NCBI GenBank assembly: GCA_963827685.1
Contig: CAWHBU010000001.1
Location: forward strand, 192,001 to 256,000
Reading direction: 5' to 3'
DNA length: 64,000 nt
DNA from: an uncultured delta proteobacterium
GTDB taxonomy: Bacteria > Desulfobacterota > BSN033 > UBA1163
Positions 26,737 through 29,743 of this stretch are shown piece after piece. The translations under genes were made by a program, and so were the position numbers. Below the pieces are notes generated by a model. That model made no database searches, was not told the DNA's origin, and saw nothing but the letters and a program-made list of their open reading frames with translations. Numbering within the stretch: the first letter of the stretch is position 1; each line of letters opens with the position of its first letter.

Positions 26737-27450
26737 TCATCTCAGCCTTCCCTCTACCGCCTTCCACTGGATATTCTTGAAGAAGGCTTCAATATAATCG
26801 GCCCTCTTCAACCCATAATCGATCATAAAGGCATGTTCAAAGACATCCAAAATTAAGAGGGGCGTGCAACCAGCAGGGTGTCCCACATCATGCTCATTGA
26901 TCCAGAAGTTGAACAGTTTTCCTGTGAGTGGATCCTGATAGAGAATGGCCCAACCGATCCCTCGCATCGCCCCGACGGCCCTGAATTCCTTTTCCCAGTT
27001 GTCGAGACTTCCAAACTCTTCAGAGATTTTTTTGAACAACTTTCCTGTTTTTTCCAACGCTCCCTTTCCCCCCAGATTTTCGAAGTAATATTCATGAAGC
27101 CTCATTCCGTTGAATTCCCATCCAAATCGCCTCTTCAACTCAGCAAACTCCAGAGAGCCCACTTTTCCCTCCTTGAGCATCTGGTTGAGGATTTCGACGA
27201 GTTTATTCGTATTCGTGACGTAACCCTGGTAAAGGGTGAAGTGGTTTTTTAAAAGGGTGTCGCTGAATCCTTCCATTCCCAAAAGCCGGCTGTAATCTTT
27301 AGTGATATAAGAGATCTTTTCCTCCTTTTTCATTTGAGCGAAAGAGAGGTCGGGTTGCCCGGACAGAAGGGCGATGCTTCCAAGGCCCGACAAGAATAAA
27401 AACTGGCGTCGATCGAAAACCCATGTTTTTAAAATCTCCTTTGTTACCAT
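26737..27450 (-). CDS. Fe/Mn superoxide dismutase family protein with Tat-like signal
   Basis: NHFTLYQGYV, NGMRLHEYYF, DVFEHAF; N-terminal DRRQFL. Confidence 0.9.
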   Translation of the reverse strand: MVTKEILKTWVFDRRQFLFLSGLGSIALLSGQPDLSFAQMKKEEKISYITKDYSRLLGMEGFSDTLLKNHFTLYQGYVTNTNKLVEILNQMLKEGKVGSLEFAELKRRFGWEFNGMRLHEYYFENLGGKGALEKTGKLFKKISEEFGSLDNWEKEFRAVGAMRGIGWAILYQDPLTGKLFNFWINEHDVGHPAGCTPLLILDVFEHAFMIDYGLKRADYIEAFFKNIQWKAVEGRLR

Positions 27451-28522: not shown

Positions 28523-28630
28523 AGTGACCTTTCCTTAAATGCGGAGTGCCAAATGCGGAATTCTGTAATCCAAAAGTCTTTAAACAAATTGTTTTCCAAT
28601 CCGCATTCTGCATCCCGAAATATGAAGGCC

Positions 28631-28792
28631 TTAACCTAAGGCCAGGAGTAACCCTACCACCGCACCCAGCGGAATGGAGATGTAGGGGTTACAGGTAAGG
28701 GCTCAGGAACTTCCGATGGTCCGGAAAAGATAGCTTATACCAAACCCTACAGAACCCCCTATGAGCATACTCAAAAGAATCTTGAGAACCAT
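28631..28792 (-). CDS. Candidate 53-aa selenoprotein (two TM helices, UxxxC loop)
   Basis: RBS AAGGAG; MVLKILLSMLIGGSVGFGISYLFRTIGSS-UGA-ALTCNPYISIPLGAVVGLLLALG-UAA; hairpin after UGA. Confidence 0.72.
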
Positions 28793-28896: not shown

Positions 28897-29029
28897 TTTT
28901 TTAGTTTTAGATGGAGAATGCAAGAACATGTTCGAGGAATGAGGATTGAGGAGTCAGGGAATTCAAAAATTCACGAATTGAGGTATTCAAGGAGTTGAAA
29001 TTCCTAAGTCCGAAATGGATGCAGGTAAA

Positions 29030-29743
29030 ATGAAAGAGTTCACCGCTGAGGAATTGACATCTTTTGACGGAAAGGAGGGTAGACCCGTCTATATCGCCTT
29101 TCAAGGGAAAGTTTATGATGTCAGGGAAAGCCCTCTCTGGGCCAAAGGCCTTCACATGAACAGGCATCCCTCGGGTAAGGACCTTGCGGGAGAGATCTCC
29201 GCGGCTCCTCATGGAACAGAGGTCCTTGAACGATATCCCCAGGTGGGGGTTTTGAAAAAAGGAGCACCCGAAGAATTGAAACACCTTCCTTCTATGCTTC
29301 AGAACCTCCTTCAAAAATTTCCAATGGCAAAACGCCATCCTCACCCCATGGTCGTCCATTTTCCTATCGCCCTCTTAATGGCCTCCCCCCTCTTTGTCCT
29401 TCTCTCCCTTATCTTCAAGAATCCTTCCTTTGAGATCACCAGCCTCTACCTCCTCATTCTTGGAGCAATCGGCTCTCCCTTTGCCATGGCCACAGGACTC
29501 CTTACATGGTGGATCAATTATCGATTGAAGCTCACCTATTTTGTAAAAAGAAAGATCCAGCTTTCTATCCTTCTTCTGATTTTCGAGATCATTCTCCTCC
29601 TCTGGCGTGGTTTTCAATCCCAGATATCTCATCCCATCTATTTCATCTTGATCGTTATCCTCGCCCCCATCGTTTCCCTCTTGGGTTACTACGGAGGACA
29701 GATGACCTTTCCCATGGAGAAATCAAACGCGGTGACGGAGTGA
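29030..29743 (+). CDS. Cytochrome b5-like domain fused to a DUF2231-like membrane domain
   Basis: FT.EEL..FDG.EGRP.YIA..GKVYDV, H..GKDL, APHG; HPHPMVVHFPIA. Confidence 0.88.
   Translation: MKEFTAEELTSFDGKEGRPVYIAFQGKVYDVRESPLWAKGLHMNRHPSGKDLAGEISAAPHGTEVLERYPQVGVLKKGAPEELKHLPSMLQNLLQKFPMAKRHPHPMVVHFPIALLMASPLFVLLSLIFKNPSFEITSLYLLILGAIGSPFAMATGLLTWWINYRLKLTYFVKRKIQLSILLLIFEIILLLWRGFQSQISHPIYFILIVILAPIVSLLGYYGGQMTFPMEKSNAVTE

Follow-up and report, generated by a model that had tools for sequence, protein, structure and literature searches.

Does an in-frame TGA in a gene of only 53 codons end translation, or is it read as selenocysteine (Sec)? The question is raised by a locus in the window, the 64,000-nucleotide stretch of DNA from an uncultured delta proteobacterium that was analysed here. 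The ribosome-binding site, the ATG, the in-frame TGA and the TAA on which the initial annotation had based its proposal of a selenoprotein are all present in the sequence (Table 1), the frame being laid out as 29 codons, the TGA and then 23 codons before the TAA. A GGAG or GGAGG core likewise lies ahead of the start in most of the 46 loci recovered from the organism's family. Read through, the frame would yield MVLKILLSMLIGGSVGFGISYLFRTIGSS-U-ALTCNPYISIPLGAVVGLLLALG. An AlphaFold2 model of this product, built with 34 aligned sequences (mean pLDDT 79.3), shows one helix at residues 2-26, a loop at 27-35 and a second helix at 36-52, and by these boundaries Sec30 and Cys34 are predicted to lie in the short segment that joins the two helices of the hairpin. 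The evidence set out below makes it very probable that the product of the gene is a two-helix membrane hairpin of 53 residues with a G-S-S-U-A-L-T-C-N-P loop, that the UGA is read as selenocysteine, and that the protein belongs to a Sec branch of the DUF6132 superfamily.

Table 1. Positions of the gene, its RNA helices and related features (window coordinates, unless a contig of genome G000 is given).
Feature	Position	Strand	Remarks
Shine-Dalgarno sequence AAGGAG	28804-28799	-	6 nt upstream of ATG
Predicted selenoprotein gene, 53 codons + TAA	28792-28631	-	Sec at codon 30
Start codon ATG	28792-28790	-	
In-frame TGA, predicted to be read as U30	28705-28703	-	C34 completes U-x3-C
Helix 1 and enclosed part	28691-28649	-	arms 28691-28685 / 28655-28649; alignment columns 15-21 / 51-57
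Apical stem-loop of the initial annotation, CCGC-UGGGU-GCGG	28672-28660	-	inside helix 1
Helix 3, GGCCUUA-GGU-UAAGGCC	28643-28627	-	7-bp stem, GGU triloop; arms 28643-28637 / 28633-28627; alignment columns 63-69 / 73-79
Closing stop TAA	28633-28631	-	
Divergent neighbour	29015-29743	+	DUF2231 over residues 110-232
Fe/Mn superoxide dismutase	26737-27450	-	N-terminal extension with DRRQFLFLSGLG, twin-arginine-like
Six other genes with an in-frame TGA (G000)	C6:489003-489929; C4:8536-10536; C3:1131509-1132264; C4:127410-127778; C3:83614-83982; C3:19940-20311	-; +; +; +; +; -	
Formate-dehydrogenase-like match (G000)	C6:398574-399524	-	TGA at an unusual site

A six-frame search of 55 genomes of the organism's family returned 46 full-length matches (residues 1-53) in 45 genomes, with identities from 54% to 98% and exactly one internal TGA each. 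In all 46 loci the length was the same, the TGA stood at codon 30 and the final codon was TAA; TGA served as the closing stop in none of them. In 10 of the 55 family genomes, eight of them with a completeness of 89% or more, there was no match at E<=1e-5. In its class the gene is found in this family alone: 44 of 54 other family members have it, and none of 13 genomes from the two sister families does. A phylum-wide sample of 301 genomes contained 27 with the gene, again with one TGA in every match, and 17 further loci came from five other families of the phylum (eight from f39, five from f59, two from f14 and one each from f27 and f52). All 17 carry the TGA in the same column, with either x3-C after it or a variant with Cys at -5. 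A metagenome scan, the loci of which are not independent of the genome loci, gave 44 loci and a TGA in each of the 43 that cover codon 30. The internal stop is therefore TGA in all 106 loci covering the codon, and never TAA or TAG. Because a frame with one TGA at codon 30 recurs wherever the gene is found, the observation made in the window goes beyond chance.

The sequence downstream of the TGA evolves as coding sequence. Mean column entropy at the first, second and third codon positions was 0.65, 0.20 and 1.12 bits after the TGA (46 loci), compared with 0.82, 0.42 and 1.43 bits before it, and this third-position bias in the variation indicates that the stretch after the TGA is translated in the same frame. 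Contigs from four sediment metagenome runs were also aligned to the locus at a likeness of at least 85%, and none of the differences listed for them falls on 28703-28705. Far more of these contigs align to the stretch from the UGA to helix 3 (28627-28718) than to the gene's 5′ half, an excess that agrees with extra constraint at the nucleotide level there.

The source genome encodes the machinery that selenocysteine insertion requires, with selA (630 bits), selB (357 bits), tRNA-Sec (81.7 bits) and selD (384 bits) all scoring above curated cut-offs; selD itself contains one in-frame TGA and is of the Sec type. Since TGA closes 833 of 2269 open frames of at least 300 codons, it is an ordinary stop in this genome and has not been reassigned genome-wide. 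Six or more further genes, each with a single in-frame TGA, belong to known selenoprotein families (selD, two of the formate-dehydrogenase alpha type and three MvhD/FlpD), and in five of these six a GGN-triloop hairpin lies 3′ of the UGA. The additional formate-dehydrogenase-like match in Table 1 has no hairpin after its TGA, which may mark a gene boundary rather than Sec.

Beyond its coding role, the region after the UGA contains two conserved RNA helices, which were analysed in a gap-free alignment running from the UGA to 15 nt beyond the stop. Helix 1, whose arms enclose 29 nt, begins 11 nt 3′ of the UGA. Across 62 sequences 90.6% of its cells were paired, and five of its seven pairs showed compensatory changes, among them pair 15-57 (UA 26, CG 22, UG 8, other 6) and pair 18-54 (CG 40, UA 9, UG 9, other 4). 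Helix 3 was paired in 90.3% of cells of the 62 sequences, with compensatory changes in four of seven pairs. The TAA stop lies within its 3′ arm, the last 4 nt of which are non-coding. At pair 68-74 the middle base of the stop codon covaries with codon 52, from UUA..UAA to UCN..UGA (UA 54, CG 5). The 3′ arm is conserved even though it extends into non-coding sequence, whereas what lies beyond the arm is not.

Several controls bear on these pairings. For both helices together, the observed number of compensatory pairs was reached in 1 of 500 shuffles, and sliding the 3′ partners by one to three columns lowered the pairing from 90.4% to 21-58%. Because the shuffles ignore relatedness, column pairs were also ranked by corrected mutual information; among 3081 column pairs in 96 distinct sequences, 15-57 ranked 1st, 21-51 5th, 68-74 13th and 18-54 40th. 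In the 43 metagenome sequences, 283 of the 301 cells of helix 1 and 276 of the 301 cells of helix 3 were paired; the loop of helix 3 was GGT in 24, GGA in 11, GGC in five, GGG in two and GTA in one. The GTA loop belongs to L135, which differs in register and has AGG rather than a stop in the closing-stop column. Folding energy was ordinary (z = -0.31 and -0.13), and no Rfam family matched the whole window at gathering scores; both results speak against either of the SECIS assignments discussed below. At E<=10 over 28580-28760 there were just two chance matches, both on the opposite strand.

Which of the hairpins acts as the SECIS element? The initial annotation had proposed a stem-loop directly 3′ of the UGA, in which pairing of GTAACCCCTAC (28692-28682) with GTAGGGTTAC (28657-28648) would enclose CCGC-TGGGT-GCGG, and RNAfold recovers this structure on a 66-nt piece. 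The outer stem of that proposal is conserved and covaries. The apical stem, by contrast, is not conserved, its CCGC/GCGG arms pairing in only 51.6% of cells in 46 relatives, and the hairpin that is universal lies over the stop codon. Only near relatives of the source genome share the apical CCGC-UGGGU-GCGG part.

The ordinary SECIS elements of the source genome provide a standard for comparison. Perfect or near-perfect hairpins of 7-9 bp with GGN triloops occur 19-23 nt after the UGA in selD (loop GGA, 20 nt), fdhA (GGC, 19 nt), a second fdh gene (GGG, 23 nt) and two mvhD genes (GGC, 20 nt), while the third mvhD gene (mvhD3) has a GUU loop on a 5-bp stem at 27 nt. The same hairpin type is present in five of six selD loci examined in five other genomes with the new gene, and these five loci come from four of the genomes. 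A genome scan for 7-bp Watson-Crick stems closed by GGN triloops returned 91 hairpins and missed known SECIS elements; it was discarded as an enrichment test because the known elements contain G-U pairs. The published model of bacterial SECIS elements, as given in section 5 of a 2026 review (PMC13188914), has a stem of at least 4 bp and a loop of 3-9 nt with G in the first two loop positions, 16-37 nt from the UGA.

Against this background, helix 3 emerges as the favoured SelB site, since it is a hairpin of the genome's own type, conforms to the stem and loop rules of the model in 62 of 62 sequences, and keeps a distance that is tied to the UGA. The last point comes from individual loci. In L096 and L099 the frame runs 27-30 nt beyond helix 3, with the distance of helix 3 from the UGA unchanged, and L101, the most divergent member, has instead a CCCGUG-GUU-CACGGG hairpin 14 nt after the UGA (a single sequence, so without covariation). 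Both observations link helix 3 with the UGA and not with termination. Its loop lies 66 nt from the UGA, compared with the 16-37 nt given in that section of the review. When columns 15-57 (43 nt) are closed off by helix 1, the path to the loop becomes 11 + 5 + 7 = 23 nt.

A different assignment within a genuine selenoprotein gene has to be weighed, namely that the SECIS function resides in the long, irregular hairpin that helix 1 and the inner stem-loop form immediately 3′ of the UGA, and that helix 3 serves mRNA stability, termination pausing or regulation. The covariation of helix 1 and its start 11 nt from the UGA suit such an arrangement, as does the fit of the window's inner loop UGGGU, 34 nt after the UGA, to the published model; in f39 there are moreover inner stems of 4-6 bp with loops of 6-8 nt and a G in the first or second position. 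However, an inner hairpin that fits the model is found in only 18 of the 62 sequences, the inner hairpins do not resemble the GGN-triloop hairpins of the source genome's known selenoprotein genes, and the fixed distance of helix 3 from the UGA, rather than from the stop, is left unexplained. We therefore regard this assignment, the main competitor of the one that we favour, as possible but unlikely.

The reading that we prefer, with somewhat better than even chances, is that of a distant SECIS, as suggested by the covariation and by the arithmetic of the path. The GGU-triloop hairpin of helix 3, lying across the stop codon, would be the SelB site that directs decoding. Helix 1 would loop out 43 nt and thereby reduce the effective distance between the UGA and the hairpin loop to 23 nt, as in the ordinary SECIS elements of the source genome; it would thus act as a distance-shortening, and perhaps pausing, clamp.

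The protein itself has homologues that allow the Sec column to be examined. Pfam DUF6132 (PF19628) matches residues 2-52, to either side of the TGA, over profile positions 5-55 of 60 with 19.9 bits (E 5.7e-4); the score falls to 13.6 bits when the stop is not read. Because its score does not reach the gathering cut-off of 23.2 bits while homologues found with its own profile do, the window protein is best described as a divergent DUF6132 relative and not as a formal member. No NCBIfam model matches it (P0001) at E<=10. All seven matches of a word-indexed protein search were 29-residue truncations. A profile of 46 proteins searched against 1.84 billion representatives recovered 136 proteins at E<=1e-3, including further 29-residue entries, and of 37 profile matches scanned with Pfam, 20 passed the DUF6132 cut-off, eight scored below it and nine had no match. 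The Cys forms read ..G.CPLTCNPY.., so that the DUF6132-like motif named in the initial annotation was right.

Public protein sets contain the gene only as 29-residue products or as UGA-ended products with spurious N-terminal extensions (for example P0002-P0008, P0023, P0033, P0034 and others; P0041, P0044 and P0048).

Of 27 database proteins aligned with seven Sec forms, 25 have Cys in the Sec column; the two exceptions are P0009, with Trp, and P0013, with Arg. P0009 is a fragment of 48 residues; L127, its nearest DNA relative, is 94% identical over residues 14-48 and has TGA at the codon, and none of the 43 codon-covering metagenome loci fetched with P0009 has TGG there. As L127 and all 43 loci have TGA, the Trp of P0009 is most simply a TGA that a gene caller translated under another table. 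Thus, on the three points by which the selenoprotein proposal was to be judged at the outset, the genome was found to hold the Sec machinery, the homologues to have Cys at the site, and the half downstream of the UGA to be conserved as protein in every UGA-bearing homologue.

Among the 301 sampled genomes of the organism's own phylum, no Cys form was found at E<=1e-4. Two candidates were rejected. L068 (G035:C52:1-1700), considered as a Cys paralogue, proved to be a 3′ fragment without the first helix: a truncated second copy of the gene's 3′ half occupies bases about 100-176, with a stop just upstream, and both arms of helix 1 and helix 3 are still present. It is probably a pseudogene fragment. 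L069, from Bathyarchaeota, lies inside a larger unrelated frame and is spurious; it came from a contig scan with a pattern that has Cys at the Sec column, by which UGA forms could not be found.

These data also bear on whether selenocysteine is involved at all. Reading of the UGA by a near-cognate tRNA (Trp or Cys), or a local change of the code, would account for the W in P0009, but it is highly improbable: TGA is common as a stop in the genome, TGA and never TGG was present in the 43 loci fetched with P0009, Cys in the homologue column is the signature of Sec/Cys exchange, and a SECIS-type hairpin occurs together with the full Sec machinery. Least probable of all is that the UGA terminates a 29-residue single-helix peptide and that the downstream stretch is a non-coding RNA element or a leader for the downstream genes, for although gene callers give 29-residue proteins for the locus and its relatives and the stretch does carry conserved RNA helices, third-position variation persists past the UGA, the part after the UGA lines up with the second helix of DUF6132 proteins, all 106 loci have TGA as their internal stop, and the downstream genes vary between families while the element stays constant.

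Most forms of the protein contain a U/C-x3-C pair. The +4 position is Ser, Gly or His in the Sec forms L067 and L101 and in the Cys forms P0010, P0016, P0025, P0030, P0038, P0040, P0045 and P0046, and every form without the +4 Cys has a Cys five residues before the Sec/Cys (C-x4-U/C). A partner Cys is therefore always kept, which fits the requirement of a selenenylsulfide or disulfide couple. In 11 of the 37 scanned homologues, all Cys forms, a Pfam Thioredoxin domain (E<=0.01; nine above the cut-off) follows C-terminal to the hairpin. Four f39 loci (L085, L086, L088 and L089) have a thioredoxin gene immediately upstream in the same orientation, and both f14 loci have an ECF sigma factor upstream and, directly downstream, a 317-residue pyridine-nucleotide-disulfide oxidoreductase of thioredoxin-reductase size. 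The thioredoxin system is a recurring theme around the family, both in fusions and among neighbouring genes. The five f59 loci (L093, L095, L097, L098 and L100) all have a divergent O-methyltransferase (Methyltransf_2 and dimerisation domain).

In the window, a divergent gene for a DUF2231 membrane protein and an MFS transporter lie upstream, with a rubredoxin and a rubrerythrin-like gene beyond the transporter, and a GalT-like gene, an Fe/Mn superoxide dismutase and cytochrome bd subunit I follow downstream on the same strand. The downstream genes and the presence of a divergent gene agree with the initial annotation; for the cytochrome b5 part assigned there to the divergent neighbour, its N-terminal 100 residues, there was no Pfam match at E<=1e-5. 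Within 1.5 kb in the 46 family loci, an upstream MFS transporter on the same strand was found in 21, a downstream GalT-like gene in 23, divergent DUF2231 in 16, a downstream superoxide dismutase in nine and downstream cydA in eight. The N-terminal extension of the superoxide dismutase (Table 1) resembles by eye a twin-arginine export signal and may thus direct the enzyme to the periplasm.

With these elements, a candidate function can be outlined. The Sec/Cys pair would cycle between a selenol-thiol and a selenenylsulfide state, the hairpin would be a redox relay embedded in the membrane, with the thioredoxin system servicing it, and in the source organism it would form part of a cluster for defence against oxygen and oxidants. 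We give such a thioredoxin-linked redox role, with Sec/Cys cycling, an even chance of being correct. Lys and Arg, counted in 107 homologues, make up 292 of 1149 residues in the N-terminal tails, 75 of 1415 in the loop and 152 of 923 in the C-terminal tails, and these charge counts favour a predicted topology with both termini inside and the loop outside. Such a topology sits awkwardly with reduction by cytoplasmic thioredoxin.

The novelty of the family was assessed against published catalogues. The 2026 review of the prokaryotic selenoproteome counts 119 families and subfamilies (PMC13188914). Its Table 1 has no entry for DUF6132 or PF19628, although its supplementary tables could list further candidates, and the words 'transmembrane' and 'membrane protein' are absent from the article. 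Membrane selenoproteins are likewise not mentioned in the term-searched passages of the BSepDB and deep-Sep papers, where supplementary tables could again list further candidates. A full-text literature search for 'DUF6132' returned nothing relevant, the sole occurrence being in unrelated work of 2011 on EamA (DUF6). The family is very probably a real and previously uncatalogued selenoprotein family, the Sec branch of the DUF6132 superfamily. It would be among the smallest of selenoprotein families and is predicted to be membrane-embedded, and it is missed by homology-based catalogues because gene callers cut the gene to 29 residues. It also provides a clue to the role of DUF6132, an uncharacterised family: since the invariant loop Cys can be replaced by Sec, the partner Cys is always kept and thioredoxin is tied to the family by fusion and neighbourhood, redox chemistry is indicated.

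Should the distant SECIS prove true, the consequences would reach beyond this family. Programs that require a spacing of 16-37 nt would systematically miss such genes. The statement that the bacterial SECIS immediately follows the UGA would become a rule of three-dimensional proximity instead of linear position. A distant SECIS would likewise account for the presence of Sec in a very small membrane protein in which the loop sequence is too constrained to hold a SECIS, and selenoprotein expression could borrow a natural design.

How does the new protein relate to known systems? The nearest motif in Table 1 of the review (PMC13188914) is that of TsoA, the 'LULAxC motif selenoprotein' (NF045695) of Haft and Tolstoy 2025. 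Compared at the level of motif and model, TsoA has the same U-x3-C spacing of Sec and Cys as the new protein; the NF045695 model, however, has 144 positions and finds no match in the source genome at E<=10. The likeness to the DUF6132 Cys proteins extends over a shared length, two glycine-rich helices and a G-x-C-P-L-T-C-N-P-Y loop, the conserved Cys of which aligns with Sec, whereas the branch described here has Sec, ends exactly at ..ALG and carries no tail. With canonical bacterial SECIS elements of the E. coli fdhF type, helix 3 shares a 7-bp stem and a 3-nt loop beginning with GG, and it differs from them in lying 66 nt from the UGA and in straddling the stop codon. A literature search for natural distal or long-range SECIS elements in bacteria returned nothing relevant. 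The closest parallel to the proposed arrangement is a construct that Su, Li and Gladyshev reportedly engineered in E. coli in 2005, in which a SECIS in the 3′-UTR is said to have been placed beside a stretch that is complementary to the sequence following the UGA. That construct reportedly follows the same principle, a distant SECIS brought near by base pairing; it was artificial, whereas the helices described here would be a natural instance.
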